Part shown: positions 13,725-61,389 of the stretch, piece by piece | Layout of the letters: every line of letters starts with the position of its first letter | Numbering within the stretch: position 1 is the stretch's first letter | Source: Halarcobacter sp. | Lineage (GTDB): Bacteria > Campylobacterota > Campylobacteria > Campylobacterales > Arcobacteraceae | Assembly (NCBI GenBank): GCA_048571215.1 | Contig: CP182352.1 | Location: forward strand, 3,360,001 to 3,424,000 | DNA: 64,000 nt | Direction of reading: 5' to 3' | Notes under the pieces: model-generated | What the model was told of the DNA's origin: nothing | The model's input: the letters and a program-made list of their open reading frames with translations, nothing else | The model's database searches: none | Program-made: the position numbers and the translations under genes

Positions 13725-13775
13725 GACTTTTCCTTCATATTTACTATATTAGATAATAAAGGTATTCACCTTTTT

Positions 13776-14250: not shown

Positions 14251-14268
14251 AAATTTAAGGATGATGTT

Positions 14269-16671: not shown

Positions 16672-16700
16672 TTCTTATTTAAGATTATTTGAGAACTTCA

Positions 16701-16863
16701 GAGACCGTTCAAAAATCTGTGTCAAGTCACCTAAAGTAACAAATCCATACTTGTTACAACTCTAAATAATTATCCAATCTCCCTTCGAAAAATATAGCAA
16801 GTTGAGAGATTGTTAAACTCCAATTATGCACTGGCTGAGTCCATTTTACTTTTGCATTTAATA
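16701..16863 (-). mobile_element. IS256 fragment (terminal IR plus transposase 3' end)
   Basis: Near-identical to 28676-28838 (one mismatch seen). Confidence 0.95.
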
Positions 16864-17132
16864 CCTCATGTCATATTCAAAAAAGATTATAATGACCTTT
16901 ACTAATCTAGGTAACTATACTATAGAGGTCTTTCCCTTACTTTTTGACTTCTTCATATTAGAAATATATCAATTAAAAAATGATAATAGTTTGTTAAAAA
17001 CTGATATTACAAATTACAACATAAATATGAGTAATGGATAATACTTAATTATCAGTTGTTAATTTTTATATATTTTATCATACTTGTCATTACTATTGTG
17101 TCATATATTTAGAATTTTAAAAAAACTTTAAA

Positions 17133-17492
17133 TTATTCTTCTTTTAATACCGTTTCTCTAATATAAATTAATAAGTCTTTCTCATCAATAATAGTAACCT
17201 TGTCTTTTTTTACAATTATTTTATTCTTACCATTATTCATCAATTTATCATAAATAGTATTTGCTATTATACCCGCTGGTACTCCACTTAATAAACCTAT
17301 TGATAAACCTATAACTAAATCTTTTTTACCAAATGCTTTTTCATCAGATTCATTTTCAAATAAATATTTAACATCTATATCATTTTCTAATAAAATACTT
17401 TCTTCTTTATTTGGTATAGAATTAAATAAATTCTCTAAAAAATTAGTATCTTCGGTAACTATTGTAATATCTTTAAAAATCTTTGCATCCAT
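17133..17492 (-). CDS. Small membrane protein (119 aa) with Gly-rich hydrophobic segment
   Basis: ATG at 17492 with GGAGAG RBS; LVIGLSIGLLSGVPAGIIANTIYDKL. Confidence 0.7.
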   Translation of the reverse strand: MDAKIFKDITIVTEDTNFLENLFNSIPNKEESILLENDIDVKYLFENESDEKAFGKKDLVIGLSIGLLSGVPAGIIANTIYDKLMNNGKNKIIVKKDKVTIIDEKDLLIYIRETVLKEE

Positions 17493-17493
17493 A

Positions 17494-18522: not shown

Positions 18523-20211
18523 TTATGATCCATTAAAAAGTTTAGGTGTTAATGATGTTGGTTTAATATTAGGTTCTTTAATTTTTATAATTATAGGCAT
18601 TGGCATTTCTATACTAATTAAAAGAGCTTCACCTGATTGTAATGTAGGTAAATAAGAAAGTGAATTTTTACTTCCCTCAGAACAAGCCTTTTCTATTACA
18701 GCTCTATCTGATTCATTTATTAATCTATGTACTATAAAAGTACCCATTTGACTTAATGTACCAACTGGTATATCTTTCGGATTTTGGGTAGAGATACATA
18801 AGAATAATCCATGTTTTCTACATTCTTTAGCTATTTTATCAAATGCATCAAGTTCTAAGTCCTGAATAGTATCATCATTAATTGTTTTCTTAAGAAACTG
18901 ATGTGCCTCATCTATAAATAATACTATTGGATTTTTCTTAAACTTATAATCTCTAGCTTCATCTAATAAATAACTTCCAATTGCATTTGTTAATATTTCC
19001 CTTAGTCCATTTTCAAAAGGAGCATCTTTTAGAGAGATTATAAAAAGTGTTTGTTCAGTTTGAGCTTCATCTAAAAAATCTTCTAATTGTTGATTAAACT
19101 CATTTTCATCATCCAGTTGTTTATCAAAACCAAAAATATTTTTGAACTCTTTTTGCCCCTTTATTCTTTCTATTCTATTTATCAGAGGATTAACATGATT
19201 TTTTGCTGTTTTATCTTCATCTCCAAATGAATTTGTAGCACTTGCTTTTACACATTCAGCATAAATTTGAGGACATAAATTATTGATTTTAAAATCACTT
19301 TTGTCAGATTCGACTTCTTTTCTATATTTATTTAATGCATTTTCATAATTACTTTTTGGTTGTCCAGCCTTTGGATATGTATTTTGACCATAGCCTTCAT
19401 TTAATTCTAATTGCTTTACTAATTTTAGACTCTTTATAGCATCAAGTAACCTTGGTTTCTGTACACCTTCACTTGGTTTAAATATTGATACTAAATCCAT
19501 TGTTCGTAATCTTGAATAATGAAAAAATGTATCTTCATTATTTGAACCAAATTTTACAGTTTTTACATTATCTAGCTCATAGAAGTTTTCATACTCACCT
19601 GTAGCATCAATTAGAATTGCTTTTGATTGATTTAATTCTAAAAACTCTTCAAGTATCCTGGAAACAGTATAACTTTTACCACCTCCCGTTGTCCCAACAA
19701 CAGCACAATGTCGTCCAAATAATTGATTTGGATTTAAAGGCAAACTAGTTTCTAAAGTATTAGTAAGTTTTGCAATATCAAAAGTAATACTACTATCTGA
19801 AGTATCACTCACAAATAGTGTTTTAATTAGATCTGCAGAACACAAATATACTTTTGAGCCTACAGCAGGATATTTATCTAAACCTTTATCAATCTTTGTA
19901 GAATAGTAATTAAATGATAGTAATAGTTCCACTTTACCTTGAGGATGAAATGAAGAATCATAAAAAGCATGCTCACCTAAAAAATTTTGTTCTTTTTCAG
20001 GTAATGAAATCTCTTGAAGCTTTCCTAAGAATCCATAGTTTTCACCTTCTATGACAACATAGTTTCCAACTATTCCACCTGATAATTCATCGTCATAATG
20101 CCAAAACTTTTTAAGTAATTTAGGAGTTGGAAAATGTATATTTGAAAAACTTGGTGTTACTTTAGATATATAACCTACAAATTTTTCATTTGTAAAGATA
20201 TGTTTATTCAT
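18523..20211 (-). CDS. herA: HerA/DUF87 ATPase of Sir2-HerA defence system
   Basis: HCAVVGTTGGGKS, LFIDEAHQF, IAKECRKHGL, STQNP. Confidence 0.9.
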   Translation of the reverse strand: MNKHIFTNEKFVGYISKVTPSFSNIHFPTPKLLKKFWHYDDELSGGIVGNYVVIEGENYGFLGKLQEISLPEKEQNFLGEHAFYDSSFHPQGKVELLLSFNYYSTKIDKGLDKYPAVGSKVYLCSADLIKTLFVSDTSDSSITFDIAKLTNTLETSLPLNPNQLFGRHCAVVGTTGGGKSYTVSRILEEFLELNQSKAILIDATGEYENFYELDNVKTVKFGSNNEDTFFHYSRLRTMDLVSIFKPSEGVQKPRLLDAIKSLKLVKQLELNEGYGQNTYPKAGQPKSNYENALNKYRKEVESDKSDFKINNLCPQIYAECVKASATNSFGDEDKTAKNHVNPLINRIERIKGQKEFKNIFGFDKQLDDENEFNQQLEDFLDEAQTEQTLFIISLKDAPFENGLREILTNAIGSYLLDEARDYKFKKNPIVLFIDEAHQFLKKTINDDTIQDLELDAFDKIAKECRKHGLFLCISTQNPKDIPVGTLSQMGTFIVHRLINESDRAVIEKACSEGSKNSLSYLPTLQSGEALLISIEMPMPIIIKIKEPNIKPTSLTPKLFNGS

Positions 20212-21416
20212 TAACTAGCTCCATTAGAATCTAAATATTGACTAGATGGTAAATAGGTTACAAAATCTTTAAAAAACTCTCCAATTATAACTATTTGACT
20301 GCTTCTTTTTGATTGTTCAAATAGTTTTTTAAAATTTTCATTTAAATCGGGTTTTATAAATGGCTCGATTATTACTAAATTTAAACTAGGGTTTTGATTT
20401 AAAGCCTCATTTATCATAGTAAATATATGTTTATCTGCAAAACTAAATCCAACTGTTATTAAAGTTGTTGTTCCATTCTTTCTAAGTTCTGATTGAAATC
20501 TACTCATCATTTCAAAATATGGTTGTTCATATGATGATTCATACTTATTACTATTTGGATAAATCATCATAGCTTTAAGTGGACTATTTGTTTGAATTAC
20601 ATCATTGTCTTTTTTTTCCCAATTTACTGAACCATGAAGTTTATATAAATGAAATACATTATTTGCAAAATTCTCTGTTGACGAAGTACGACTATTTTCA
20701 CGAATTACTATATCATAATCAAAATATTTACCACTAAACTTTCTTGGTTGAGTGAAAGAGAAACCATCAATAATTACATATCCTCCTTCAGCTCCAGCTT
20801 CTTCAAATGCTCTATCATAATTTGTCGTAAATATTTTAAGTCTAGATTGTTTAGTTTTACGACTCGTAAGTTTTTTTATAAATTCCAAATGTATTGACTT
20901 ATCTATTAATGAAAAATTACATAGATTTAATATCCAACTTTCAATTGTAGCTACATGCCAAGCAATATTTTCATTATTATTAAATTCTAAATATAATTTT
21001 GCTTTTGATAAAACGGTTTCTAAATCTTTTTTACTTTTAATATTTTCATCTATACCAATAGTATTTAAAAATGTATTAAAATTATAATTCTCTCCTTGAA
21101 GTGTTAACATAAAATCCCATAGTTCCCACATTAATTTGCCACCAAATAATTCATCATCTTTAGAACTACCTGCACCAGTTAAAACTAATAGTTTTTCTGC
21201 AGATACTAGTTTTTCAAGTAATTTAATATAATAACTTTGAGATACTTCAAGAGCCTTTTTAGTTAAAGTTGCTTCATCCATTCCCTCAGGAGATAATTTA
21301 TATTCAATTGTTTCATCACCTTGTTTTTCTTTTAATAAAACTCCATTAATTTTTAATTCATCCCCATTAATTTCAACCAATTTATTTTTTGTACTTAAAA
21401 AAATTTTATTTTCCAT
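20211..21416 (-). CDS. SIR2-family NADase of Sir2-HerA defence system
   Basis: LTGAGSS, FTTNYD, KLHGSVNW, GFSFADKHI. Confidence 0.9.
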   Translation of the reverse strand: MENKIFLSTKNKLVEINGDELKINGVLLKEKQGDETIEYKLSPEGMDEATLTKKALEVSQSYYIKLLEKLVSAEKLLVLTGAGSSKDDELFGGKLMWELWDFMLTLQGENYNFNTFLNTIGIDENIKSKKDLETVLSKAKLYLEFNNNENIAWHVATIESWILNLCNFSLIDKSIHLEFIKKLTSRKTKQSRLKIFTTNYDRAFEEAGAEGGYVIIDGFSFTQPRKFSGKYFDYDIVIRENSRTSSTENFANNVFHLYKLHGSVNWEKKDNDVIQTNSPLKAMMIYPNSNKYESSYEQPYFEMMSRFQSELRKNGTTTLITVGFSFADKHIFTMINEALNQNPSLNLVIIEPFIKPDLNENFKKLFEQSKRSSQIVIIGEFFKDFVTYLPSSQYLDSNGAS

Positions 21417-21463
21417 AAATTACCTCTTCTTTAATATCATAAAATCTATATTACTTTTATACT

Positions 21464-22189
21464 TCAAAAAGTTATCATTTTTAAATTATTCTCTAACTGT
21501 ATCTTGGTTTGTTCATGAGAAAGTTCCCATAAGCTTGATAAATAATTTATTACAATATCTACATCCCATGGATAAAGTGTACTATTATTCAAGATTGCAA
21601 ATGGACCATCTGTTTCTGGAAAAATCTTTTCTTTTGGTATTTTACTAATTAAAGACATACCTTTTTTTGCATAACACATTTTAGGATTTATACTAAAATA
21701 GCAACCTAAGTTAATAGCTCTATCTAATTCTCTTTGTGTACCTGAAAACCAATGTAAAATTGATGTACCACAACTAGGATACTTTTCTAATAAATTTAAA
21801 ACTTCCGTAGCTGCTCCTCTTGAATGTATACTAAGAACCTTTCCTGTTTGGTTTGAACACTCTTTTAAAACTTTTTCAAAAACATCAATTTGAAGATTAA
21901 AAGTATGTTTAAAATCTTTAGTCCCATCTAAGCCGATTTCACCAATATATTTAGTATTTTTTATTAAATCAATTAGTAAATTAACTTCATTGATTTTTTT
22001 ATCAACAATTTCAGGATGCAAACCTAAAGCAACATGTATATTCTTATAGTTCTTAAATACATTACTTGTCGCTACATATGCCCTTGGACTTGTTGTAACA
22101 CATAATGTAAATATATTATTTACATTAACTTTAGATATTATTTTTAGAGAATTTGGATACAAATCTAAATGTGAATGCATATCTATCAT
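21464..22189 (-). CDS. qatD: QatD, TatD-family nuclease
   Basis: DMHSHLDLYP, LGLHPE, GEIGLDG, SIHSR, HWFSG, ETDGPF; last gene of the qat operon. Confidence 0.9.
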   Translation of the reverse strand: MIDMHSHLDLYPNSLKIISKVNVNNIFTLCVTTSPRAYVATSNVFKNYKNIHVALGLHPEIVDKKINEVNLLIDLIKNTKYIGEIGLDGTKDFKHTFNLQIDVFEKVLKECSNQTGKVLSIHSRGAATEVLNLLEKYPSCGTSILHWFSGTQRELDRAINLGCYFSINPKMCYAKKGMSLISKIPKEKIFPETDGPFAILNNSTLYPWDVDIVINYLSSLWELSHEQTKIQLENNLKMITF

Positions 22190-23478
22190 AATACGCCCTT
22201 AGCTTTTAAAAACTCACCTAATTCTTCAAGTCCATTCTTTACAACATTTACATATTTACTTCTATCATCTACTGACGAAAAAGACAATGAACCTCCTATT
22301 ACTGACTCTATCCCAAATTTTTTATATTTTACATAAGCTAAAGCAACAGCTTGAATATCATCATGCTTGTCATTTCTAGCAGCATCAGCTGTCAAATCTG
22401 TATAAAAATATTTTGTTTTATCTTCTATTTTTGCATGATAATAAGAAGCTCTTCTAACTAAACATGGCACACAACGTCCGCAATGTGTATAAGCAAATCG
22501 ACTGTATCTTCCACAACTTGTAGTAGTATTTATCAATGAATTTATAAGTGTTTTATTTTTACATTTTTTTAACATTTCACCTTTAGTAGTAAACTGATAG
22601 TTCCTTATTAATTTAACATTTATTCCTACACTATTTAATATCTCTTCAATTGAATTTAAAAAAACTGGATGTGTCGTTTTTGTACTAAGACTACCTAATC
22701 TAGAACCTGTTAAAGCTGTATTCAAACTTATAAATCCATTTTCAGCTATAAATACTGGAACAGTTACTTTCCCCCATTTTTTTAAGGATGATGCAGCAAG
22801 CAATGCATATGCTAAAAAGACTATTGAACGTCCTCTCGTAGAATCTTCAACCTTATTTCTTGTGATTGGGTTCTTCCATTGAAAATGTTTTAATTTAGGT
22901 GCTAGCTTCTGAGCAAACTCTATTTGCTTATCTGTATCTCCTTTAGCTCCCTGAGATATAAAACATGGACTATAACCATCTGAAACAAGGTCTATTCCTC
23001 CTATTAAACTATCCATACCACCTGAAAGTAAAGCAATACAGTCTGCATTATTATCTATTTTATCAAAGAGCTTTTTAGGTTTTGGTGGAGGCATTCCTCC
23101 ATCAAAAAAAGTAAATTCCCAAAAGTCACCTGTCAAAAACCTTATAGTTTTTTCCAACTTGTTTTTAACTTTTTCCCATGGCTTTTTGTTGTGTAAATAA
23201 ATCTCTAATTGTATTTTTCTAGTCCATCCATCACTACTAGAACTTCTAACACAACTTAAATCTGCTGCATATATACTAAAACATATCGATATAAAATCCC
23301 ATACCGTATCATCAGGATAAAAACCTTGTTTTTTTATTATTTTATCCCATCCAAAAGCAACATAACCTGGAACTTTTTTACCAGCTAATGAAAATCTTAA
23401 ATTATATAATGAAAAATATATAACATCTTTATCTAAGAATTCAGGTAATACTTCTATTGGTCCACATACAACTTTCAT
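22186..23478 (-). CDS. qatC: QatC, QueC-like PP-loop protein
   Basis: LLSGGMDS, STKTTHP, HCGRCVPCLVRR. Confidence 0.9.
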   Translation of the reverse strand: MKVVCGPIEVLPEFLDKDVIYFSLYNLRFSLAGKKVPGYVAFGWDKIIKKQGFYPDDTVWDFISICFSIYAADLSCVRSSSSDGWTRKIQLEIYLHNKKPWEKVKNKLEKTIRFLTGDFWEFTFFDGGMPPPKPKKLFDKIDNNADCIALLSGGMDSLIGGIDLVSDGYSPCFISQGAKGDTDKQIEFAQKLAPKLKHFQWKNPITRNKVEDSTRGRSIVFLAYALLAASSLKKWGKVTVPVFIAENGFISLNTALTGSRLGSLSTKTTHPVFLNSIEEILNSVGINVKLIRNYQFTTKGEMLKKCKNKTLINSLINTTTSCGRYSRFAYTHCGRCVPCLVRRASYYHAKIEDKTKYFYTDLTADAARNDKHDDIQAVALAYVKYKKFGIESVIGGSLSFSSVDDRSKYVNVVKNGLEELGEFLKAKGVL

Positions 23479-24320
23479 TCAATTTCCTCTTCAAATACCG
23501 CAAATGTATTCTCTATTGCTTGTCTCATAATTGCATCTAGTCTAGTAATTTCAGGATCTGGATCTTTTTCTCTAAATGGTTTAATTTGAGCTACTATTTC
23601 TGCTTTCAAATATTCATACATTTCGTTACTTCTTTCAACTTGTTGAACTGGAGTTAATTTTGAACTTTCAAATATTTGTCCAATATCAAGTTCAATCCTA
23701 CTCTTTGCTTCATAAGATAAAACATTTTCAATTAAAGTCCATACTTCATTACTCCCCATATTTAATAAATCGATATCAGGATCAGTAGTTAACATCTCAG
23801 ACATTGCAAATGTCATAGAGTTTTTTATACTATCTTCATCTAGAGTGCCACCTTCATTTGTAACACGTTGAACTATTGCATCTATAATTTCATTTGGAGT
23901 TGGATTCTTTGAAATGAGATTTTTATGCCAATCACTAATTTCAGGAGTTGCTTCATTTTTAACATCATTTATAAAAGAGACTAAACCTGCTGTAGCTTTT
24001 GTAGAAACTCTCATTCTTTTTGATATGTTTTGAGCACCACCCATTCCTGTTTTGGAATAATGTCCCATTGACTTTCTAAAAGAAGTTCTATCACCAGATC
24101 TAGCATAATTTCCTAAATATCTACGTGCGTCAGCAAATCTTCTAGGTGGAGCTACTTCCTGATTAGGATTATCTTTTTTTGGTTCTTTTTTATCATCATT
24201 TGGTACTTCTGTATTTCCATCATTTGGTAAAGATGGTAATTCACTACCTAAATCATCTAGCCAAGGTGGATCCATAGAAACACCTGGACCTGGACCACCA
24301 CTTGAAGTTGAAGTTCCCAT
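23475..24320 (-). CDS. qatB: QatB
   Basis: MGTSTSSGGP start and position between the KAP NTPase and QueC-like genes. Confidence 0.85.
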   Translation of the reverse strand: MGTSTSSGGPGPGVSMDPPWLDDLGSELPSLPNDGNTEVPNDDKKEPKKDNPNQEVAPPRRFADARRYLGNYARSGDRTSFRKSMGHYSKTGMGGAQNISKRMRVSTKATAGLVSFINDVKNEATPEISDWHKNLISKNPTPNEIIDAIVQRVTNEGGTLDEDSIKNSMTFAMSEMLTTDPDIDLLNMGSNEVWTLIENVLSYEAKSRIELDIGQIFESSKLTPVQQVERSNEMYEYLKAEIVAQIKPFREKDPDPEITRLDAIMRQAIENTFAVFEEEIE

Positions 24321-26179
24321 TATTTATCTCCTTTTACTTTTATTTCAATTGCATTTTTTACTCTTTTAGGAGTTGCATCATCTTTAGCCCATCTTGATAA
24401 TACTTCTTTAGCCCATTTCTCTGTTGAAATTATAGGAATCAAAGGAGCTGGTCTATTTTTAGGTGATATCCCATCTAATATTTGAATAAATATATTTGAT
24501 AAACTTGGATAAGCATTCACAATATGATAACATCGAAGAATAGAAACTGAACTTTCTTGTTCTCTAGCAATATGTTTTCTTAAACGAACAAGTAATTTAT
24601 TTGCTTGTTCTTCTCCTAATAATTTAATTTTAGGAATTAACATATTTTGGAAGTTTTTTATATTTAAAAGAGCATCAAATATCTCTTGAACTTCTAAAGA
24701 GAGTTCATCAATACCTACTAAAGATACATTTATATTTCTACTTAAATATAGGAAGGGACGTAAATCAATATCATTAAGTAAAGGTTTTATTTGTATCCAC
24801 TCTTGAATAAAACTATCATCCCAACTAGTATCAGGAGCTTTATAATCTTCCCCATTCTTTTGACTTTCTTCTAACTCAGTTAAAAACTCTGGTTTACCTG
24901 TCTTACTCTCATAAACTTTTTTAGATAAAAACTCAAATGCTGCTGTAGATGCACATCTTTCAAATATTTGTATTTTTACTAGTTCTTCAAAAGAAATACT
25001 CATTTCATGAGACTTAGCAATCTTCTCTCTAATAACTAAATTATTCAAAAAACGTTTTATTAATCTTGGATTACCAGCTAACTGATTAGAAGTAGCCATA
25101 ATAGCTGCTAATTGATCTGCAATATCTATCTCTTTTAATATTTTTGTATCTTTATTAAATGCTTCATACATGTCATTATGAGTAAGACCACCAAGCCATG
25201 GTTGTTTAAGTTTTTTTAGAATTTTTTCTTTTGCAGCTAAATAAGATTCTTTTGTTATTGTATTTTTTCTAACTGCCAAATCTGTTAAAAGTAAAATCAA
25301 ATAAGCTTTAACTTCATTAATACCTAATCTTGGCACTTGAAGAGGAACTTGAATTAGTTTATCAAAATAGCTTGTCACAAGTTCATCATCAATTTGAGCT
25401 GCAGAAAAATGTGCATGTACAGCATTTCTAATCATCTTCTCATCAGCTGCAATGATAAAAGCTGTTCTAGGTAAAAATAAAAGTAATCTCATAGCTTCTA
25501 GTGTTGAAATTGCCGTATTTGGCATACATCTATCTAAATCATCTATTAGAACTACTAGTTTAATATTTAATTCTTCCAAAATATCTTGAAAGTTTTTTCT
25601 TAAACTATTAACTTCTTTAGGTAAAGAGGTCATATCTTCACCTTTTATTAAATCAGATAATGCAGGTTCAACCTCTAGATACTTTTCATGTAGCTCTTGT
25701 ATTTGTTCTTGTGAAGGAGTAGCATTACCACTAAATAAACCACCAATAGAACCTATAAATGCTCCAATTGGTCCACCTGTAACTCCACCAATTGTTGCAC
25801 CAGTTATGGCAGGTGCGGAAAGCTTTATAAGCTTAAACCAATTAATTTTTTTTACTAGTTTTTTTACTTTTTCTAATAATTTCTCATCAGTTTGTGCTTT
25901 TTCAAGAAGTTTATCTGATACAGATTGTAATAAAGCTATTTTTGCTTCATCAAAACCTTGATATAGCCAGGCATTGAATTCAAGAAATATATATTCTGTA
26001 TTTTCTTCACTAAGTTCTTTACCTATCATTTTTACTAAAGAAGATTTTCCACTCCCCCAGCTACCAGAGATACCAATAGATAATGGTTCATTTCCACTAT
26101 CTTTAATTAGTTCTGCTGCAACTTTTGATAATGACTGAAAATTTAATAAATCGTTAGTAGTTTCAAGATCGTGCCACAT
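24320..26179 (-). CDS. qatA: QatA, KAP-family P-loop NTPase
   Basis: MWHDLET, GSWGSGKSS, IDDLDRC, YFDKLIQVP, NPRLIKRFLN. Confidence 0.9.
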   Translation of the reverse strand: MWHDLETTNDLLNFQSLSKVAAELIKDSGNEPLSIGISGSWGSGKSSLVKMIGKELSEENTEYIFLEFNAWLYQGFDEAKIALLQSVSDKLLEKAQTDEKLLEKVKKLVKKINWFKLIKLSAPAITGATIGGVTGGPIGAFIGSIGGLFSGNATPSQEQIQELHEKYLEVEPALSDLIKGEDMTSLPKEVNSLRKNFQDILEELNIKLVVLIDDLDRCMPNTAISTLEAMRLLLFLPRTAFIIAADEKMIRNAVHAHFSAAQIDDELVTSYFDKLIQVPLQVPRLGINEVKAYLILLLTDLAVRKNTITKESYLAAKEKILKKLKQPWLGGLTHNDMYEAFNKDTKILKEIDIADQLAAIMATSNQLAGNPRLIKRFLNNLVIREKIAKSHEMSISFEELVKIQIFERCASTAAFEFLSKKVYESKTGKPEFLTELEESQKNGEDYKAPDTSWDDSFIQEWIQIKPLLNDIDLRPFLYLSRNINVSLVGIDELSLEVQEIFDALLNIKNFQNMLIPKIKLLGEEQANKLLVRLRKHIAREQESSVSILRCYHIVNAYPSLSNIFIQILDGISPKNRPAPLIPIISTEKWAKEVLSRWAKDDATPKRVKNAIEIKVKGDK

Positions 26180-26208
26180 TAAATACCTTTCATATTATAT
26201 ATTTACTA

Positions 26209-27933
26209 TTATATATCCATTATTTCAAAAATTTTACTTTCTAAGCAATTTTTTCTATTTTCTATAGAAGTAACATTCCACTCCATAGGATAATCAGCAA
26301 TAACTTTTTTAGTCATATCAAATGCTGTTACACCTGTATCATCTTCAGAATATTTACCTTTTCCTTTATAAATATTGATTTTTATATTATAAGGATTATT
26401 ACTTGCAGAAATATTTTTTGAACCACTCAATAGAGTTAAATTACCTAAACTATGTAAATATCTATTTACTTCATCTATAGTAAATTTATTTTTCCAATCA
26501 TCAAATTCATTCCAACCAATTGGTAAAATATGTTCTGTATGAATTGTATTATCTAAGTGAATATACGCTAATTTTGCATCATCTGTTATCCTATATTCTA
26601 TAATTGTTAATAAAGGCTTTATCCATGCTGTATGATAAACATCATTACTATTAATCACCTCTTTAACTTGTTTTACAATATTATCTTTTTCAAGTTTATT
26701 ATTTAAACTAGTAGTTATATAGTTTATATGCTTTTTATCTTTTATCCATGAAATCATATTAAATGAAATTTGTTTAATATGAGATAGTGTTTTTCCTGAC
26801 ATCCAATTTAAATAATAAAATCTTCTAAGAGCAATTTGTAACTCATCATAATATTCATAGTTTGTATGTAAGGCTGTAAGTAAAATACTCTTCCAATATA
26901 CTGTCCATCTTAAATACCAAAAGGAATAAAGTATTTTATCTTCCTTGTCCCAAATCTGATTTTTATAGGTATTAACAAATTCTGAAAAATCTTTTATAGT
27001 ATCATTAGGATCTTGTTGTTCAAAAATATCTTGCAATTCATCAGAAAGTGATTTTTTTGGATTTCTAGCAATTAAATAATAAAGATATACTGTAAACATA
27101 TCATTCATACTGTCACTTGTACCTGTTAATAAGTTTTCTAAACGTCTCCACTCAGCAATAAACTCGTTTTCATCTTCTATCCTCGCTTCAAAATTTTCAC
27201 CCTCATCAACATATTTTTTTTCTATTTGTTCTAATAAAAAGCTTTTTACTAAATCTGATGCAGTAAGGTCCATTCCCCTATCATTTAAGACTTGAAATAG
27301 TTTTATTGCAAAACTTCTATCTTCACAATCTATTCTAATTATTGACACTTTATTAAATAAATATTCAATTAAATCTCCTGATCTATCTTCACCAATCTCT
27401 TCAAGTTTACTTCTTAATATATAGGCACTATTTTGGAATTTCAACTTTGGTTGTTCATCATCCTTAAGTTGATACTTATAAGGTTTTTGATGCTTTAAAG
27501 TTGAACCCTCACTTATAATATTTTGTTTAAAGTCTGCAGAATGTTGGGGATCAGTAAGTAAAGTTAGTCTTTGATCACCAAAATTAAATATGGCACTGTT
27601 AATATGCTTTGTATTAATAGTATTTTTATTGTTATTAATATTAGGATATAAATCTCTTAATACGCATAACAATATCATTAAAGTTGTTAACCTTTGTTGA
27701 CCATCAACAATATCAAATCTATTTGAACCAGTTTGAGGAGCAGCAGTAATTATTGAACCTAAAAAATAGTTTTTTGATTCATTCACAAATGATTCAGAAA
27801 TATCATCCCATAACTGTTCAATTTGTTCATCTAGCCACTTATATGGTCTTTGATATTTAGGTATTCTATAAATAGAATCTGTATCCATAAAAAGTTGCTT
27901 TATTGTTCTTGATCTTGGTGTAAATAATTCCAT
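26209..27933 (-). CDS. DUF262-DUF1524 (GmrSD/SspE-like) nuclease
   Basis: IPKYQRPYKW, DGQQRLTT, LNDRG, EHILP, LGNLTLL. Confidence 0.9.
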   Translation of the reverse strand: MELFTPRSRTIKQLFMDTDSIYRIPKYQRPYKWLDEQIEQLWDDISESFVNESKNYFLGSIITAAPQTGSNRFDIVDGQQRLTTLMILLCVLRDLYPNINNNKNTINTKHINSAIFNFGDQRLTLLTDPQHSADFKQNIISEGSTLKHQKPYKYQLKDDEQPKLKFQNSAYILRSKLEEIGEDRSGDLIEYLFNKVSIIRIDCEDRSFAIKLFQVLNDRGMDLTASDLVKSFLLEQIEKKYVDEGENFEARIEDENEFIAEWRRLENLLTGTSDSMNDMFTVYLYYLIARNPKKSLSDELQDIFEQQDPNDTIKDFSEFVNTYKNQIWDKEDKILYSFWYLRWTVYWKSILLTALHTNYEYYDELQIALRRFYYLNWMSGKTLSHIKQISFNMISWIKDKKHINYITTSLNNKLEKDNIVKQVKEVINSNDVYHTAWIKPLLTIIEYRITDDAKLAYIHLDNTIHTEHILPIGWNEFDDWKNKFTIDEVNRYLHSLGNLTLLSGSKNISASNNPYNIKINIYKGKGKYSEDDTGVTAFDMTKKVIADYPMEWNVTSIENRKNCLESKIFEIMDI

Positions 27934-28119: not shown

Positions 28120-28456
28120 ATGTTAGAAGACTATATTAAATTTTTATAACGTAAAATAAAAAAGAGCTATCGTTCTGTTATTGGACATTTCCCTAGCATA
28201 AAAAATGGTAAATCAATTATTTATGAGTCCCTATTGGAAAGAGACATTTATCTATCTTTTGAATTTGATGATAGTGTTGTTAGTTATTATGAATAGCCTC
28301 AAATGGAAATATAATTTAAAAATAGAGAGATAACATATAGTTTGGATTGTTATATTGTAAGAGATAAAGAAAAAGAACTGAAAGATTCTATTAGTGAAGT
28401 AAAATCATATTTGTTTACTAATGAACTTACAATGAAATCTTTAGTGGAGTTAAACA
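28120..28456 (+). pseudogene. tnsA: Decayed tnsA of element C
   Basis: Homologous to 53044..53712 including upstream DNA; in-frame stops and a large internal deletion. Confidence 0.9.
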
Positions 28457-28637
28457 GGAAAATGGGTAAATAGAAGTTCTGGAGATACTTGATAAGTGAA
28501 AACTTCACTTTTTGTCATGTTTTTTACTACGACATCATAGTGACTATTCCCAAACTTATCTTCATCGAGTATTAGTTTTAAAGGAAATAAAAATTTAAAA
28601 GTATCATCTGGATTATCTGACATAAAATCTGGAATGA
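28455..28637 (-). pseudogene. Internal fragment of element C tnsE-like gene (5' end stranded at 59425-59448)
   Basis: Translates IPDFMSDNPDDTFKFLFPLKLILDEDKFGNSHYDVVVKNM...SPELLFTHFP, homologous to 57643..59340. Confidence 0.9.
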
Positions 28638-28675
28638 TGTGAGAATCAATAAAAAATGATAATAGCTTTTCCTTT

Positions 28676-36809: not shown

Positions 36810-36817
36810 AATTTTAG

Positions 36818-53043: not shown

Positions 53044-53712
53044 ATGCTAGAAGATTATATTAAATTTCCACAACGCAAAATAAAAAAGAGCTATCGTTCT
53101 GTCATTGGGCATTTCCCTAGTATAAAAAATGGTAAATCAATAATCTATGAGTCACTATTGGAAAGAGCCTTATATCTATCTTTGGAATTTGATGATAGTG
53201 TTTTTGCATATTATGAACAGCCTCAAATTGAAATTGATTTTAAAAATAGACATTCAACATATAGCTTAGATTGCTATATCCGAAGAGTAAAAGAATCAGG
53301 GGTTAAAGATACGATTATTGAAGTAAAATATTCAAATGAACTTGAAAAAAATAAAGAATACTTTGAAGAAAAATTTGAAGATACGAAAGTGTTTGCGAAA
53401 GAACATGATTTAGAATTTGATGTATTTACTGAACTTTCATATAGCAAAGAATATATAGAAAATTTAGACTTTTTATATAGGTATAAAGAAAATCCAATAG
53501 AACATAAATATGAAAAAGAGATATTGGATGTTCTTAAAGACACTACAAAATTAGCTGCATTTGATTTAGTGCAAAAACTTACATCTAATCCAAAAGAATA
53601 TGCAATAGTTTCTAATAACATTTGGTCATTAGTTTCAACTGGTAAATTAAAGACAGATTTATTTGCTAATGAGTTTACTATGAATTCTTTAGTGGAGTTA
53701 AACAATGGCTAA
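53044..53712 (+). CDS. tnsA: TnsA endonuclease
   Basis: YESLLER...LEFD...EQP...D...IEVK PD-(D/E)xK pattern; overlaps the tnsB start. Confidence 0.85.
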   Translation: MLEDYIKFPQRKIKKSYRSVIGHFPSIKNGKSIIYESLLERALYLSLEFDDSVFAYYEQPQIEIDFKNRHSTYSLDCYIRRVKESGVKDTIIEVKYSNELEKNKEYFEEKFEDTKVFAKEHDLEFDVFTELSYSKEYIENLDFLYRYKENPIEHKYEKEILDVLKDTTKLAAFDLVQKLTSNPKEYAIVSNNIWSLVSTGKLKTDLFANEFTMNSLVELNNG

Positions 53713-55591
53713 TGTAATTTCCTTTGATATTGATAGTAAAATTTTTTACCAAGATGTAGAATATATTATAAAAGGATATCCCTCTTTAGAGGAAGTACTC
53801 CTCAAAAAATTAAATAAACCATATAATGAAAAAATTGTAAAAGTCAATGATTTAATTAGTGACCCTAAAAATATAAAAAAGAGAACAAAAGAATTAGTTG
53901 ATACTGAACAAAAAGAATTAGATAAAGCAACTGAACGATTTAAGATTATTGAACCTTTATTAGACATTGAAAATAGAACAGCAAAAGATGTTCAAAAAGT
54001 TGCAAAGAAAAATAAAAAAGGTATTGCCACAATATATAGATGGCTTAATACTTATGAGCAATACAAAACTGTAAGTTCACTAGCTTCTAGAAGAGAATTT
54101 TGTGGAGGTAAAGGAAAAAGTAGATTAGACGAATCTGTTGATACAATAATCAATAGTGTAATAGAAGAGATGTATTTACATAAACAACAATATCCCCTGC
54201 AAGATATCTATGAAGAGATTGTTTATAAATGCCAGAATATAGAACTAAAAGCACCCACAAAAAATACGATAAGAAATAGAATAAATGCTTTACATCCAAA
54301 AATTATTGCAAAATATAGAAATGGAATAAGAGTAAATGAAACTAGAGGAATGCCAAATAAATTTCCAGATGTGAAAATGCCTTTAGACATTATTCAAATT
54401 GATCATACTAAAGTTGATGTTATTTTGGTTGATGAAGAAAATAGAGAACCAATTGGAAGACCTTTTATTACTGTTGCAATTGATGTATATAGTAGGATGA
54501 TGTATGGCTTCTATATCTCTTTAGAAGCCCCTAGTTATTTTAGTGTAGGGCAATGTTTATTAAATGCAATTTTACCAAAGGATGAATTATTAGCAAAATA
54601 TAAAGTTGAGGGAGAATACCCTGTTTATGGATTGCCTAGAAAGGTACATATGGACAACGGTAAGGACTTTACTTCAATTAGTTTACGTAATTTTTGTCAA
54701 GAATTTAGAATAGAAGATCGCTATCGTCCAGTTGCTAGACCTGAGTTTGGTGGTGCAGTAGAAAGAGTTTTAGGCACATATATGAAAAAGATGCATTCCT
54801 TGCCAGGTACAACTAGATCTAATATATTTAAAAGAGGAAGTTACGATTCTGAGATAGAAGCTGCTATGACTATTGATGAACTTGAAGAATGGTATTTGGA
54901 TTTTGTAATAAATGTTTATCATAAAACTGAACATAGCTCAATATTTATGACACCTGAAGAGAAATTTTATCAAGGTTTATATGGCGTCGGAAAAGAAAAG
55001 TCTATCCCGTTTTTGCCTACAGTTCCAACAAATACTTTAAAGCTTAGAATGGCATTACTTCCTCAAATAAAACGTAGTGTTCAAAAAAATGGTATCACTA
55101 TTGATTATATTACTTATTTTTCAGAATCTTTGAGAAAATGGATTATTCCATCTCAATATAAAAAATTAAAACCTAATTTAAAAAATGAAGTTATTTGTAG
55201 ACGTGACCCAAGGGATATTAGTAAAATATATGTATATGATGAAGATATTAAAGATTATATCACTGTTCCATATGCAGATATTAGAAAACCTAAAATGAAC
55301 TTATCTGAGCTTAGAGAGGCAATTTCGGAAGCAAAAAAGCAAATAACAGGAAGAGAACTTGAACCTCATGATATTTTTGAAGCAAAAGAGAGACTTCGAC
55401 AAAGGGTTGAATCTGCAAAAAGAGAAAAAAAATCTGTAAGACGTAAAAGAAGTTCTAAAAAGCATCAAGAAAAAATTTTAAATATGGAAAAAGAGAGAAT
55501 TGATTATAAAGAGACCAAACCTACACCTTTAAAAATATCCCAAGCACAGGATGAAGATGAGGAAGGTTATGATATATATCCTATAGGTTGA
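53705..55591 (+). CDS. tnsB: TnsB/TniA DDE transposase
   Basis: QIDHTKVD, AIDVYSR, MDNGKDF, GAVER, RDPRDIS. Confidence 0.92.
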   Translation: MANVISFDIDSKIFYQDVEYIIKGYPSLEEVLLKKLNKPYNEKIVKVNDLISDPKNIKKRTKELVDTEQKELDKATERFKIIEPLLDIENRTAKDVQKVAKKNKKGIATIYRWLNTYEQYKTVSSLASRREFCGGKGKSRLDESVDTIINSVIEEMYLHKQQYPLQDIYEEIVYKCQNIELKAPTKNTIRNRINALHPKIIAKYRNGIRVNETRGMPNKFPDVKMPLDIIQIDHTKVDVILVDEENREPIGRPFITVAIDVYSRMMYGFYISLEAPSYFSVGQCLLNAILPKDELLAKYKVEGEYPVYGLPRKVHMDNGKDFTSISLRNFCQEFRIEDRYRPVARPEFGGAVERVLGTYMKKMHSLPGTTRSNIFKRGSYDSEIEAAMTIDELEEWYLDFVINVYHKTEHSSIFMTPEEKFYQGLYGVGKEKSIPFLPTVPTNTLKLRMALLPQIKRSVQKNGITIDYITYFSESLRKWIIPSQYKKLKPNLKNEVICRRDPRDISKIYVYDEDIKDYITVPYADIRKPKMNLSELREAISEAKKQITGRELEPHDIFEAKERLRQRVESAKREKKSVRRKRSSKKHQEKILNMEKERIDYKETKPTPLKISQAQDEDEEGYDIYPIG

Positions 55592-55596
55592 AATAG

Positions 55597-56466
55597 ATGA
55601 ATGAAAGAAATTTGACAAAAGAAGCTTTAGCGTATTTAGAAAAAAGTGATGAAGAAAGAATTTTATATTGTAAAAAAGATCATTGGATAGGATATGGTGC
55701 AGCTGTAAAATTAATTGAGATTTTAGAAGATAAGTTCTTTGATCCTCCTCAAATGAGACATGAAGGCTTATTGATTTATGGCGACTCAAACAATGGTAAA
55801 ACTGCTATCTTAAGAAAAATGTATGATTTACATAAAGTCAAATTAGAGCCAATTGAAAAAGGCGATAACATAACTTATGATATTCCTATAATATATTTTC
55901 AAGCTCCCACAGTTCCCGATGAAAGTAGATTGTATAGTCTTATATTAGAAGAACTTTGTGCTCCTTGTAAGCCAACAGAGAAATTATCAATAAAAGTAAA
56001 ACTTGCAAAGCATTATTTAAATAAATTAGGAACAAAGATGATTTTAATAGATGAGATTCATAGTTCGTTAACTGGTAATCTAAATAAACAAAGAACTTTT
56101 ATAGATGATTTAAAGCAGCTAAGCAATAGTTTGTCATTAACCATAGTTTTAGCAGGGACAAGAGCTGCTCACTCTGCTTTATCAATTGGAGAAGAAACAG
56201 CAACAAGGTTTCCTTCTATTGAACTTCCTAGATGGAACAATGATAGAAAGTTTAGGTCTTTTATTGCTACCTATGAACGATGTTTACCTCTAAAAGAGGC
56301 TTCAAATATGGCAGATAATCCAGAGATAATAAATGCACTTTTTCATCAATCTGAAGGATTAATTGGAAAAACAGTGAATTTATTGAAAAAAGCAGCAGTA
56401 AAAGCAATCAAATCAAAAAGAGAGTATATTATAGTCTCTGATATAGAGTATTTACCAAAGTTGTAA
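55597..56466 (+). CDS. tnsC: TnsC/TniB AAA+ ATPase
   Basis: HWIGY, GDSNNGKT, LIDEIH, TRF. Confidence 0.9.
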   Translation: MNERNLTKEALAYLEKSDEERILYCKKDHWIGYGAAVKLIEILEDKFFDPPQMRHEGLLIYGDSNNGKTAILRKMYDLHKVKLEPIEKGDNITYDIPIIYFQAPTVPDESRLYSLILEELCAPCKPTEKLSIKVKLAKHYLNKLGTKMILIDEIHSSLTGNLNKQRTFIDDLKQLSNSLSLTIVLAGTRAAHSALSIGEETATRFPSIELPRWNNDRKFRSFIATYERCLPLKEASNMADNPEIINALFHQSEGLIGKTVNLLKKAAVKAIKSKREYIIVSDIEYLPKL

Positions 56467-56467: not shown

Positions 56468-57640
56468 ATGAAAACTAAAAAAAGAAATAGAGATTGGGTT
56501 CAAGACTATTTCTTTTTGTTTATTTCCAAACCTTTAAAAGATGAACTTTTAAGTTCTTGGTTAACCAGAGTTGCTTTTGAGCATCAACGAGATCTTTCAA
56601 GTTTTATATCACTTTTCATAAGACATCAAGGAAGCACAATAGCAAGAGCTGATATTGATTTTTTATATGATGAAAAACTATTTAAACAATTAGCTAGAAA
56701 AAGCCATTTATCTGATAAAGAAATATATCAAATGTCTTTACGTAGTGAAGAAGGACATCTTTTTATTTGTTCTGAAAATGGGTTATATCCACCTTTTCAA
56801 ATTAGAAAATTAACTGACAAAAGAACTCATCATGCTTTAATGTATTGTCCAAAGTGTTTAGCTGAGGAAAAAATTCCATATTTTAGGAAAAAATGGAGAT
56901 ACAACTTTTATAATGCTTGTCCAAAACATAAGATATTTTTAACAGACAGATGTTGGCGATGTTATACAAAAATTGAATTTCCAAAAATAAAACATCTAAA
57001 AGAACTTTGTTTTTGCTATAACTGTGAAAAAGATTTAAGAGAAACTATTACGATATCTATTCAATCAAATCATAAATATGGATTAAAAGCTATTGAGTGG
57101 TTTGAAAAAGGATTAAATAAAGGATATTTTATAATAAATAAACAAAAAGTTAAATCAGTTTTTATATTTGAAAGTTTTACAAAATTGAGATTTTTATTAG
57201 GTAAAAAACAAAAATTAGATTTAGAAGCCTTTCCTTTGATAGAAGAGTATAAAGATATTTGTAAAAAGCTAGAAAAATATAATTCTAAAAAAGCTTTATC
57301 TATATATAAAGAGTTCGTATTAACCTCAATGGTTTATTATCTATTTCAGAATTATCCTAATAATTTAATTGATTTCTCAAAACAAAACCATTTTACTCAT
57401 AGGGATTTTGTTCATGGTTTTAAAGATATTCCATTTTGGTATAAAGAACTAATAGATGAGATTATCCCCATGCAAAATAAAATAGGTAGAGTAATTAGTG
57501 AAAGTGAAGTTTTAGGAGCTATTAAGTATTTAAAAAATCAAAAGAAAGTTGTAAATCAATTAAATGTGGCAGAAGTTGTAGGTTGCCATTTTACAATACA
57601 TAAGGGTTTTATAAAAATCTACAAAAGAATAATCAAATAA
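56468..57640 (+). CDS. tniQ: TniQ/TnsD-like target selector with C-terminal HTH
   Basis: PLKDELLSSWLTR, YCPKCL, CPKH, CWRC, CYNC zinc motifs. Confidence 0.9.
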   Translation: MKTKKRNRDWVQDYFFLFISKPLKDELLSSWLTRVAFEHQRDLSSFISLFIRHQGSTIARADIDFLYDEKLFKQLARKSHLSDKEIYQMSLRSEEGHLFICSENGLYPPFQIRKLTDKRTHHALMYCPKCLAEEKIPYFRKKWRYNFYNACPKHKIFLTDRCWRCYTKIEFPKIKHLKELCFCYNCEKDLRETITISIQSNHKYGLKAIEWFEKGLNKGYFIINKQKVKSVFIFESFTKLRFLLGKKQKLDLEAFPLIEEYKDICKKLEKYNSKKALSIYKEFVLTSMVYYLFQNYPNNLIDFSKQNHFTHRDFVHGFKDIPFWYKELIDEIIPMQNKIGRVISESEVLGAIKYLKNQKKVVNQLNVAEVVGCHFTIHKGFIKIYKRIIK

Positions 57641-57642: not shown

Positions 57643-59340
57643 TTAAATTTTTCCTAATAATCCACTATACCACTTAGCTAATTGCATATCATTCAAACTT
57701 TCATTTCTCTCATGATTCTTTTTAGCAAATTTAGGATTAGTTTTTTTATATTTTTTGGAAATGTCAGGAATAGAAATATCATCTTTACAATATAAATTGA
57801 TGAAAAGATTAAATATATCTTTTGTTATAAATGAATCAGAAATTATTACCCAACAAGATGCAGATGAAGATGTATAGTTTTCTAATTCTAATAATCCTAC
57901 ATGAGAATTTTTATATTTAAAAGTAGCAGTTAAATATTGTCTAGCTCTTTTTTTCATTTTGCATTTAGAGTTAATCTTTTTTTCACCATTTTTTTCAACT
58001 ATAAATTCAGGTAAATGAGTTACTTCATTTAAAACAAAATTTTCAATAGGTTTTTGTTTCTGTAAAAAATCCATGTATTGCTTAAATACTATAAAATTAT
58101 CTATTTCCTTTAGAGGAGTTTTTTCACCTTTTTCAAATTCACTAGAGATTATCACTCTTCTGGTTGTTTTATCTCCTTTTGATGAGGACTCTGTAAGACT
58201 TTGATCAACTTTATCTCCATTCTCTTGCTCTTGATATATTTTTAGTAAATCCTCAATAATATCTTTAGTCTTTGTTTCATGTTCTATTTCAATATTTTGT
58301 AAACTTCCACAACTTTTTTTTCTGTCTTTTTGATGTTGAGTTCTGGTGTGTTTTTTATTTGCATGTTTTACTTTTAATATTTCAGTAGTCTCTTCAGGAA
58401 TTTCTCTATCAACTTTAGAAAGATTTTCTAAATCATTTATAGTTGTAATAACTTTATTTTGCTCAATAATTTTTGTAAATTTGTCAAATCCTATATCTGA
58501 GTAATCATTTAAAATTTCATGAATATAATAGTATTGTTCGTTTGTATCTTTATTTGTCAATAGAGTTGCTTTTACATCTATTTTAAATTTTTCTTTCACA
58601 GGAAAATTTATTTTTAGATGAATATCTCCAGGTTCTTTATCTATATCCTCTTGTCTCATATATGCAAGATAGTTGTGTATATACTTGCCTATATTATCAA
58701 ATTCATTATGAGCAGTTTCTTGACAAGCAAATCTATGTATAAAAGCAGCATCTTCATCTGTACGTGGAGTTGGTAATACAATTTTTGCATCTGCTCTATT
58801 ATCATCACACATAATATATAAACTTTCAACATTACACTCTAAAGAGGCTTCTCTCATTTCTGAAAATCTAAAGTAATAATATATACCTATCGCATAATGG
58901 GGGATTATAATTTTGATACCAGATTGCTCTATTAAATAACAGTTAATATATTTTGCAGTATTTAAAAATGTATAATTCCAACCAAGTAAAGTACCAATAG
59001 TCTTATAATCAAGTATTTCATGTAGTTTCTTTGATGAAGAGTTGTCTATTAAAGAGGTATCAATGAAAAAACTTTCTTCAAAATTTTCTTTATCTGGATA
59101 ATTTTCTGTTTTATCACTATTTTTAAAAGATTTACAAAGAGGAAAATGTGTAAATAAAAGTTCAGGAGAGATAAGTTTTGAAAACACATTACCAGTAGAC
59201 ATATTTTTAATTACGACTTCATAATGACTATTCCCAAACTTATCTTCATCAAGGATTAATTTTAAAGGAAATAAGAGTTTAAAAGTATCATTTGGATTAT
59301 CAGACATAAAATCAGGAATAATACTTTTACCCTTTGACAT
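57643..59340 (-). CDS. TnsE-like protein (tentative)
   Basis: 565 aa, conserved next to the element end in both C and D; IIIPHYAIGIYYYF and RQYLTATF...VGLLELE...SASCWVI recall TnsE N- and C-terminal patterns. Confidence 0.55.
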   Translation of the reverse strand: MSKGKSIIPDFMSDNPNDTFKLLFPLKLILDEDKFGNSHYEVVIKNMSTGNVFSKLISPELLFTHFPLCKSFKNSDKTENYPDKENFEESFFIDTSLIDNSSSKKLHEILDYKTIGTLLGWNYTFLNTAKYINCYLIEQSGIKIIIPHYAIGIYYYFRFSEMREASLECNVESLYIMCDDNRADAKIVLPTPRTDEDAAFIHRFACQETAHNEFDNIGKYIHNYLAYMRQEDIDKEPGDIHLKINFPVKEKFKIDVKATLLTNKDTNEQYYYIHEILNDYSDIGFDKFTKIIEQNKVITTINDLENLSKVDREIPEETTEILKVKHANKKHTRTQHQKDRKKSCGSLQNIEIEHETKTKDIIEDLLKIYQEQENGDKVDQSLTESSSKGDKTTRRVIISSEFEKGEKTPLKEIDNFIVFKQYMDFLQKQKPIENFVLNEVTHLPEFIVEKNGEKKINSKCKMKKRARQYLTATFKYKNSHVGLLELENYTSSSASCWVIISDSFITKDIFNLFINLYCKDDISIPDISKKYKKTNPKFAKKNHERNESLNDMQLAKWYSGLLGKI

Positions 59341-59532
59341 GTTAGTTTAAACTCCCATTATCAAATTTTATTTGACATATTATCACTTTTTATTTCCTAT
59401 TATCATTTTTTTTTGCTTTTGACAAATGATACTTTTACCTTTAGACATATTAAATTAAACTTCCATTATCAAAGTTTATTTTACATATTATCACTTTTTA
59501 TTTCCTATTATCATTTTTTATTTTTTCTGACA
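59321..59532. repeat. Two tandem ~108-bp-offset transposon ends, each with three ATTATCA TnsB-site cores
   Basis: 59321-59424 and 59429-59532 are homologous; each ends in GACA. Confidence 0.9.
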
Positions 59533-61389
59533 CCTCATACTAATATACATATGAATAATATCAATAGCAGCTGGAGTTACTCCTGAAATTTCACTTGCAT
59601 TGAAAAGTGTTGGTGGATTAAACTTTTCTAGTTTTTCAACTACTTCATTTGATAATCCTGGAATATCTTTAAAGTTAAAGTTTTCCGGGATTTTCAATTG
59701 AAGCATTTTTTTCATTTTTTCTATTTGTTTTTTTTGTTTTGCTACATATCTATAATATTTTGCTTCGATAATGATTTGCTCTTTTAGATAGTCTTCTGTA
59801 TTGGCTAAGCTTGGAACTAACTTATCAAATTTTTCTTTATCAACGGTATTTCTTCCCACTATATCAATAAGAAGTGCTCTGTCTTTGATTTTGTCTTCAC
59901 CTAAACTTTCAAGTAGTTCTAGGTTCTCTTTTTTTGAGGTAAACCATTCGTTTGCCATAAATTCAACTGCATTTTGTAGTACCTCTTTTTTGTGTTCTAC
60001 TTTTTGTAGTTGTTCTTGTGAAACTAGTCCAAGCTCATATCCATATTTTGATAGTCTCATATCTGCACTCTCTTCTCTTAGAAGAAGTCTATATTCAGCA
60101 CGGCTTGTAAACATTCTATATGGTTCATTTGTTCCTTTTGTAACTAAATCATCAATCAAAACTCCAATATATGCTTCATCTCTTCTTAGGATAAAAGGCT
60201 CTTTCCCATCAATTGCCAGACAAGCATTTATCCCTGCCATAAGCCCTTGTGATGCTGCCTCCTCATATCCTGTTGTTGCATTGATTTGTCCCGCATGGTA
60301 AAGGTTAGATATCTTTTTTGTTTCAAGGGTATGCTTCAATTCAGTTGGATCAACATAATCATATTCTATAGCATATCCATATCTTATGATTTTTGCATTT
60401 TCTAAACCTTGTATTGAGTGTATCATCTCTTTTTGTACATCAATTGGTAAAGAGGTACTTAGTCCATTTATATAGTACTCTGTTTTCATTGCTGTTTGTG
60501 GTTCTAAAAACAGTTGGTGTCTTTCTCTCTCGCTAAATCTACTTATTTTGTCTTCAATACTTGGACAATATCTAGGACCTCTACCTTCTATTTGACCTGT
60601 AAACATTGGAGCTCTATGGAAGTTACTTGAGATTTTATCATGGGTGTTTAGGTTTGTATATGTTATAAAACATGGATGTTGTGTTGGCTTGAAGTTTGAT
60701 TTATCTGTTCTAAATGAAAAAGGTGTTGGCTCTTCATCCCCTCCATGGGCATCCATAACATCAAAGTTAATAGAGCTTGCATCTATTCTTGCAGGTGTTC
60801 CTGTTTTTAGTCTTCCTACTTTTAGTCCTAACTCTTTTAACTGTATAGATAAGGTTGAAGATGGTAGTTCCCAAGCTCTTCCTGCATCATATTTGTTTTC
60901 CCCTATATGGATAAGTCCTTTCATAAAAGTACCTGTAGTTATGATAACTTTTTTACTTTCAAATACTTCACCAAGTTTTGTTTTTACTCCATAAACTTCA
61001 TTTTCATTTTTAACTAAAAGTGAAGATACTTCATCTTGATAAACTTCTAAGTTAGGAGTATTATGACAAACTTTTCTCATATACTCTCTATATTTATCCA
61101 TATCGATTTGTGCACGACTTCCTTGTACTGCTGCACCTTTTGAGGCATTTAGAACTCTAAATTGTATACCTGTTGCATCAGTACAAAGTCCCATCTCTCC
61201 ACCTAGTGCATCAAGCTCTCTTACTAGGTGACCTTTTGCAAGACCACCAATAGCAGGATTACAAGAAGCAGCTCCTATTTGTTCAACAAGCATAGTAATA
61301 AGTAGGGTTTTTTTACCCATTCTTGCACTTGCTAAACTAGCTTCTATCCCAGCGTGTCCACCGCCGACGACTATTACATCATATTTCAT
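59518..61389 (-). CDS. mnmG: tRNA uridine-34 5-carboxymethylaminomethyl modification enzyme MnmG/GidA
   Basis: [47 protein letters not shown]. Confidence 0.98.

Follow-up and report, generated by a model that had tools for sequence, protein, structure and literature searches.

The 3' end of mnmG as an attachment site for a Tn7-like transposon lineage whose terminal repeats rewrite the end of the gene

Tn7 uses TnsABC with TnsD at attTn7 (glmS) and TnsABC with TnsE. According to the accessible text of PMC2918618, its insertion point lies about 20 bp beyond the glmS stop codon, in agreement with the preliminary description of the locus analysed here, which had contrasted Tn7 with it on this point. 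Sparing of the target gene by insertion outside it is said of Tn7-family elements in general in the portions available of PMC8649781 and 10.1101/2025.07.27.667033, and type I-F3 sites guide insertion to just outside the reading frame (10.1101/2020.07.02.184150, available in part). Attachment sites inside a host gene have also been described. Tn6022/AbaR elements interrupt comM and need TnsF; their TnsE homologue is encoded separately from the remaining tns genes, and they form stacked and nested insertions (excerpts of PMC11014353). An archaeal Tn7-family element at a methylase gene disrupts that gene and carries a replacement copy (10.1101/2025.07.27.667033, same portion). In the RNA-guided VchCAST (Tn6677), the wild-type right end has stops in all three frames within 57 bp, and engineered ends have been used to add an in-frame extension to a host protein at the stop codon (PMC10201428, partial text). 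Our literature search, whose coverage left out most subscription journals, returned no description of an attachment site at mnmG. The term mnm was absent from the searched parts of the main texts of PMC10293859, PMC8649781, PMC11406308 and 10.1101/2025.07.27.667033; in the accessible part of the PMC10293859 supplement, mnmG/gidA was not found and one Arcobacter tnsABC-tniQ locus is given.

The window analysed here is a 64,000-nt stretch of a Halarcobacter sp. genome (contig CP182352.1) in which a 48,188-bp Tn7-like element, element C (11345-59532), is inserted in mnmG directly behind codon 619. Nested in C is a second element, D (28638-59424; 30,787 bp). The coordinates of both, and of an older end behind C, are collected in Table 1. 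The locus shares with Tn7 the five-protein set, TGT...ACA ends, a 5-bp duplication, a single orientation, asymmetric repeat arrays at the ends and insertion targeted to a conserved gene at its 3' end. Of the features of the Tn7-like family, TnsABC (in D), TniQ, TnsE (by relatives and predicted fold), TGT...ACA ends, and specificity of site and orientation were found. It is not, however, a glmS-homing Tn7. The target is mnmG and most ends lie in its reading frame, TniQ has 390 aa, and tnsE lies by itself at the end next to the target, oriented toward tniQ. With Tn6022 it shares the intragenic site, the separate TnsE homologue and the nested insertions, but here the modelled MnmG domains are whole, and no TnsF-like or recombinase-like match was found among 43 of the 49 listed ORFs, taking the top five families for each. 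Unlike the archaeal element, only the tail of the protein is swapped. Stops in all three frames are shared with VchCAST, although here the in-frame extension is natural. The locus is not a CRISPR-associated transposon: no Cas family was detected among the 43 proteins scanned, and none of the 20 largest direct-repeat families listed was array-like.

Table 1. Positions of mnmG, the two Tn7-like elements and the older end within the window
Feature	Position	Strand	Remarks
mnmG (gidA)	59518..61389	minus	623 aa; final four residues and stop transposon-derived
5-bp target-site duplication TGAGG, mnmG side	59533..59537	minus	insertion 21 nt from first base of His613
Element C proximal end, nt 1-15	59518..59532	minus	translated Cys-Gln-Lys-Lys-stop
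Element C mnmG-proximal end	59449..59532	minus	starts with TGT; three TnsB-site-like repeats in close succession
C tnsE-like gene, first 8 codons, interrupted by D	59425..59448	minus	59425-59429 is the duplication TCATT of D
Distal end of C (from 11345), preceded by second TGAGG copy (11340-11344)	11340..11460	plus	
Element C cargo	11490..27933		includes GmrSD-like, QatABCD and Sir2-HerA defence genes
Element C remnants	28120..28637		duplication of D, rest of truncated tnsE-like gene, broken tnsA
Older proximal end, second lineage	11290..11339	minus	wrote C-K-T-N-stop before C
tnsE-like stub of older element	11146..11289	minus	47 codons; 44/47 residues identical to the N-terminus in genome G013
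D proximal end	59341..59424	minus	AAA at nt 13-15; 108-nt repeat, 88%
D distal end	28638..28675	plus	TAA at nt 13-15; IS256-family element starts just inside
D tnsE-like gene	57643..59340	minus	565 aa
D tniQ	56468..57640	plus	390 aa; PF06527, E 2.7e-22
D tnsA, tnsB, tnsC	53044..56466	plus	PF08722; rve and Mu-transpos_C; TniB and AAA_22; all frames open

On the minus strand mnmG ends with ATG AGG TGT CAG AAA AAA TAA, which gives the protein end M-R-C-Q-K-K-stop. The TGT had been proposed to be the first triplet of element C, and this was confirmed by the positions of the TGT (59532) and of its partner end (from 11345), with TGAGG on both flanks. Repeat cores lie at nt 20, 40 and 62 of this proximal end, and the first stops in the three frames fall at nt 13, 20 and 33. 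The repeats are probably TnsB binding sites. MnmG contains the Pfam domains GIDA, GIDA_C_1st and SAM_GIDA_C, the last of which ends at residue 612, immediately before the histidine used as an anchor (residue 613); the modelled part of the protein therefore stops seven residues ahead of the insertion point. In E. coli MnmG the entire C-terminal region was too flexible for modelling in earlier crystal structures (PMC12397908, partial text), which says nothing direct about the last residues. It is plausible, given the persistence of such alleles, that intragenic insertion at this position is harmless. An RNA-library contig matches the mnmG of the window through the TGT, as far as 59530, and then continues for 169 further letters; it fits a strain without element C, though it is not proof of one.

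Element C retains only remnants of tnsA and tnsE, and no further tnsB or tnsC of the type in D was found elsewhere in the genome. D lies 108 nt inside the end of C, past codon 8 of the C tnsE-like gene, and is bounded by its own duplication, TCATT, at 59425-59429 and 28633-28637. A tandem duplication of the end of C was considered as the origin of D and was ruled out by D's own distal end and its own duplication. The 565-aa protein of D had no Pfam match of its own, but TnsE_C (PF18623) was matched by 11 of 57 aligned relatives. Its structural model reached a pLDDT of 91, and TnsE C-terminal domains filled the first five places among its Foldseek matches (probability 1.0 and E 0.013 for the best). 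The protein can accordingly be described as TnsE-like by relatives and predicted fold. A protein atlas search with it gave no usable match, and a single-sequence fold of TniQ had a pLDDT of 35, too low for use.

The two tnsE-like genes (starts 59340 and 59448) both begin at nt 85 of a proximal end and lie on the same strand as mnmG. A scan of 59200-59700 found no terminator and nine promoter sites, compared with 4.1 +/- 2.1 in shuffled sequences, and these sites largely overlap the repeats. Since mnmG and the tnsE-like gene share a strand and no terminator was found between them, insertion may place the tnsE-like gene under mnmG transcription. At the other end of D, an IS256-family element (28676-29990) lies about 38 nt inside the terminus, which may leave D immobile; the cargo of C contains a 163-nt fragment of this IS (16701-16863). 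The cargo of D at 30109-44239 includes N-glycosylation genes (pglB in two frames, a flippase and sugar transferases) and a gene for a 2345-aa Rhs/YD-repeat protein with PKD and NHL domains. After the small genes behind the latter there are direct repeats of 41 nt and 87 nt, 1,197 nt apart. At 44691-52863 there are a viperin-like radical SAM gene with a TauD-family neighbour, a TIR/SEFIR-NACHT gene, an ATPase gene and a cytosine methylase gene.

The occurrence of such ends was surveyed in 175 mnmG 3' ends, 165 of them from Arcobacteraceae genomes (family membership judged from record titles), three from collection loci and seven from genomes of four other families. An end was called from a TGT and two repeat cores (TGA at nt 20 and about nt 40), and nt 13-15 were ignored. 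In its 20-nt-spacing form the rule called 28 of 139 mnmG 3' ends in the discovery set, as compared to none of 18,016 control positions lying 150-280 nt downstream of the same anchor. Ends were called in 41 of the 175 alleles (31/165 in Arcobacteraceae), 42 ends in total, from related genomes whose counts are not independent. Measured from the last conserved His codon, 27/42 lie at +21 and 8/42 at +20; the others occur once each, at +16, +23, +25, +27, +41, +68 and +129. Offsets of +20, +21 or +23 account for 36 of the 42 ends, and the multi-repeat end always points toward mnmG. The insertion in the window had been described as intragenic, with the end supplying the last residues and the stop codon, and this holds in 38 of the 42 ends. 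Matching 5-bp duplications were found in 10 of the 12 elements in which the far end was reached, and also in D; two of the 12 had no match.

The distribution of TniQ agrees with that of the ends. All 18 Arcobacteraceae matches of at least 56% identity lie within 18 kb downstream of mnmG, as do matches of the same clade, within 22 kb, in 7/7 genomes of the four other families, which were chosen for their TniQ out of 401 genomes searched. In total the clade was found downstream of mnmG in 25/25 genomes of five families. Where more distant matches (25-39% identity) shared a contig with mnmG, all eight were more than 80 kb away from it; one copy in G439 is on a separate contig and could not be placed. 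Judged from sequence, the mnmG 3' end is a dedicated attachment site of this Tn7-like lineage, and the co-occurrence of the TniQ clade with mnmG, by analogy with known selectors, makes the TniQ of D the likely selector of the site. A plasmid search with TniQ gave 187 records, all below 60% identity and the best-ranked at 28%, with no plasmid-borne member of the clade, so no ends of the TnsE pathway were available for comparison.

The sole end found away from mnmG is a proximal-type end in G081 (L039, C21, near 78686). It has AAG at nt 13-15, has no tns genes in the surrounding 60 kb and was kept outside the counts of 42 ends; the mnmG of G081 is without a called end. Left out of the survey were L056 (near-identical to G087b), G170 (no anchor), nine of the 12 collection loci (eight repeating mnmG junctions already included, one repeating the G081 end) and nine low-ranking or contig-edge genomes from the list of relatives. 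G120, in which the contig ends at the TGT, and G133, with a run of N, were left out of the set without an end. G015 and G175 carry decayed ends missed by the rule and were classed as stubs. Two mnmG 3' ends were present in each of two assemblies, G087 (L038 and L043, both occupied) and G093 (L130 and L040, one occupied), which are likely mixed bins. In G068 (L191, 142-1371) the site is occupied by a mini-element of 1,230 bp that has both ends, between matching duplications, but lacks tns genes.

The site has been used more than once in the window. Directly behind the distal duplication of C, positions 11325-11339 read TGT AAG ACA AAC TAA, which had been interpreted as an older transposon end. 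This interpretation was upheld: two 20-nt repeats in the register of TnsB sites follow, and then the tnsE stub. The same type of end heads intact elements in G013 and G124, with a TnsB about 47% identical to that of D. A displaced native tail was considered for 11325-11339 since G147, the best-scoring relative, has nearly the same DNA at its mnmG, and was dropped in view of the G013 and G124 elements and the stub. It follows that G147 is not a true empty site, and that the MnmG tail before C, C-K-T-N, was by this comparison already transposon-written. Older ends stand behind the newer element in five of ten matched cases, directly in G000, G115, G124 and G142 and at +2 nt in G056. Further along the window, beyond a Kef-type antiporter gene, the inner repeat and tnsE start of the older end occur a second time, without a TGT (9120-9207). 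Another 8 kb on, past restriction-modification genes, is a remnant of a tniQ 3' end (992-1287; 68-72% to both lineages). This block, which G147 does not have, is probably a third, decayed element.

The end of D had been noted to have AAA at nt 13-15 and not to abut mnmG. Both statements are correct for the window, but the second does not describe a fixed property of the end: an element about 98.5% identical to D (27 differences in 1,826 nt), in contigs of two soil metagenome runs of one study, joins a different mnmG allele directly, skipping the end of C, at an intragenic junction that by count lies at +22. C landed exactly on the end of another lineage, and D, at +129, landed 108 nt inside the near-identical end of C. 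The position of D past the three repeats of C may thus reflect immunity to a near-identical resident end, with ends of other lineages being overrun; this is one case, and G142, with a related one-repeat end immediately behind the newer element, is a partial exception.

The tails written by these ends vary widely, the 38 intragenic ends giving 32 different tails. Their stops lie at nt 13 (13 ends), 16 (3), 20 (9), 33 (1), 40 (11) and 7 (1). In eleven in-frame alleles translation continues as far as the TGA at nt 40, and in the out-of-frame ones it ends at nt 20 or 33. Native tails were recovered behind matching duplications in four elements, and show TKK replaced by CKKQ, NKKA by CHKH, and SKKK and NKLKDGK each by a 13-residue tail. 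The question raised in the preliminary description, whether empty-site MnmG also ends in CQKK, can therefore be answered in the negative for these four. In the 124 alleles without a called end and without Cys, the length of the tail beyond the insertion point varies between -1 and 14 residues.

It had further been claimed that ends landing in the attachment site are selected for an in-frame stop at nt 13-15. In support, the three in-frame ends of the type in the window's history (C, the 11339 end and a displaced end in G115) all have TAA, TAA at this position yields the commonest tail length of four residues, and the cluster closest to the window leans the same way (4/6 in-frame compared with 3/6 others). 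Tabulation of nt 13-15 across all ends nevertheless showed no excess of TAA where it can act. It is present in 13/27 in-frame ends and in 12/15 ends where it cannot act (9/10 out-of-frame and 3/5 past the stop of the gene, with G044, at +27 with a TCT start and a stop at nt 7, grouped among the 15); the one-sided p for the predicted enrichment is 0.99. The direction is the same without the most sampled genus (9/23 as compared to 6/9) and with one vote per cluster (0.51 as compared to 0.94). Eleven alleles read through, and distal ends have TAA in 5/13, including that of D, which never faces mnmG. By the refutation criterion set out in the preliminary description the claim is largely refuted, and selection for this stop is very unlikely. 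TAA recurs one repeat later, at nt 33-35, in 29/42 ends, compared with 25/42 at nt 13-15, which places it within the TnsB repeat. The opposite form of selection, by which in-frame ends would lose an early TAA in favour of a longer tail or read-through, could be read from the deficit in in-frame ends (13/27 against 9/10 out-of-frame, two-sided p 0.028, uncorrected). However, a single genus, all ten of whose ends have TAA, contributes six of the ten out-of-frame ends, the genomes are related and the pattern was found after looking, so that this too is very unlikely. A weaker, general selection, in which intragenic homing demands quick closure of all frames and so helps to keep the TnsB repeats rich in stops, would agree with the finding that all 38 intragenic ends stop within 42 nt, compared with 248/396 (63%) of native post-stop frames within 14 codons. 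That figure is partly circular, since the calling rule demands TGA cores at nt 20 and about nt 40 and so builds in closure of two frames within 42 nt (nt 13-15 are unaffected). The same cores also occur in distal ends, and an unrelated guide-RNA element likewise has stops in all frames (PMC10201428, partial text). We regard general selection as unlikely. The stop seems to come along with the repeats to which the transposase binds, rather than being a selected feature.

Traces of such ends also appear in alleles without an element. Among the 132 alleles without a called end, eight have Cys at the insertion codon, all encoded by TGT, and there is no Cys among 542 later tail residues. Six of the eight match a known end for 8-16 nt beyond the TGT, as compared to 5 of the 124 other alleles matching some end for at least 8 nt from nt 4; the other two match for just 5-6 nt. 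The G096 stub equals the G119 end over 19 nt, and the G012 stub the G007 end over 16 nt. These could instead be native tails that resemble the ends by chance, both being A-rich; the five matches among the alleles without Cys show that such resemblance occurs, and the G154 tail could derive from one like the displaced native tail of G148. The restriction of Cys to the insertion codon, its invariable TGT and the length of the matches make a chance origin rather unlikely. The stubs are better read from their sequences as fossil ends retained as the coding tail of the host. A TniQ match was present in none of the eight genomes, and no tns gene was seen in the downstream 10-20 kb of the four that were read there. 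In G088 (L112) and G049 (L102), a CQKQ-stop stub is followed by the next gene, whose ATG lines up with the first core of the former end's repeats.

The explanation we favour, at a probability of roughly 0.8, is that a Tn7-family lineage homes to the mnmG 3' end and that its end replaces the tail, the stop being a by-product of the repeats that needs no adaptation. The lineage, found in Campylobacterales, would carry TnsA, TnsB, TnsC, a 390-aa TniQ and a TnsE-like protein, with its attachment site at the mnmG 3' end. By analogy with TnsD at glmS, TniQ would read the conserved codons just upstream and TnsC would set a fixed distance. Because the MnmG tail is short, variable, Lys-rich and beyond the last modelled domain, this distance usually falls in frame and the end replaces the tail. 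TAA and TGA are so frequent in the TnsB repeats that every frame is closed within 42 nt, as observed in the ends of both C and D, and no special adaptation is needed. Newcomers would land on the same nucleotide before older ends and rewrite the tail again, and on decay of an element its first 12-20 nt, by then coding, could persist as the host C-terminus. A broader reading would make the Campylobacterales MnmG C-terminus a palimpsest, repeatedly overwritten at one nucleotide by a single Tn7-like family, in which trapped stretches of 12-20 nt outlive the element as fixed host sequence and many apparently native tails of the xKKQ type are decayed ends; we consider the odds of this to be even.

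The mnmG attachment site with gene-sparing intragenic landing is real and general, and apparently undescribed. New here are the serial overwriting at one nucleotide and the eight element-free alleles with a Cys-initiated, end-like stub. The site represents a further route by which the target gene is spared, in which insertion occurs in dispensable last codons and the transposon end finishes the gene. It is occupied in about a fifth of Arcobacteraceae alleles (31/165), is loaded with defence genes in this genome, and could be a landing pad in Campylobacterales. The 32 tails form a natural series of C-terminal variants of one enzyme. If the palimpsest reading is true, a near-universal enzyme would have recurrently domesticated the end of a transposon.
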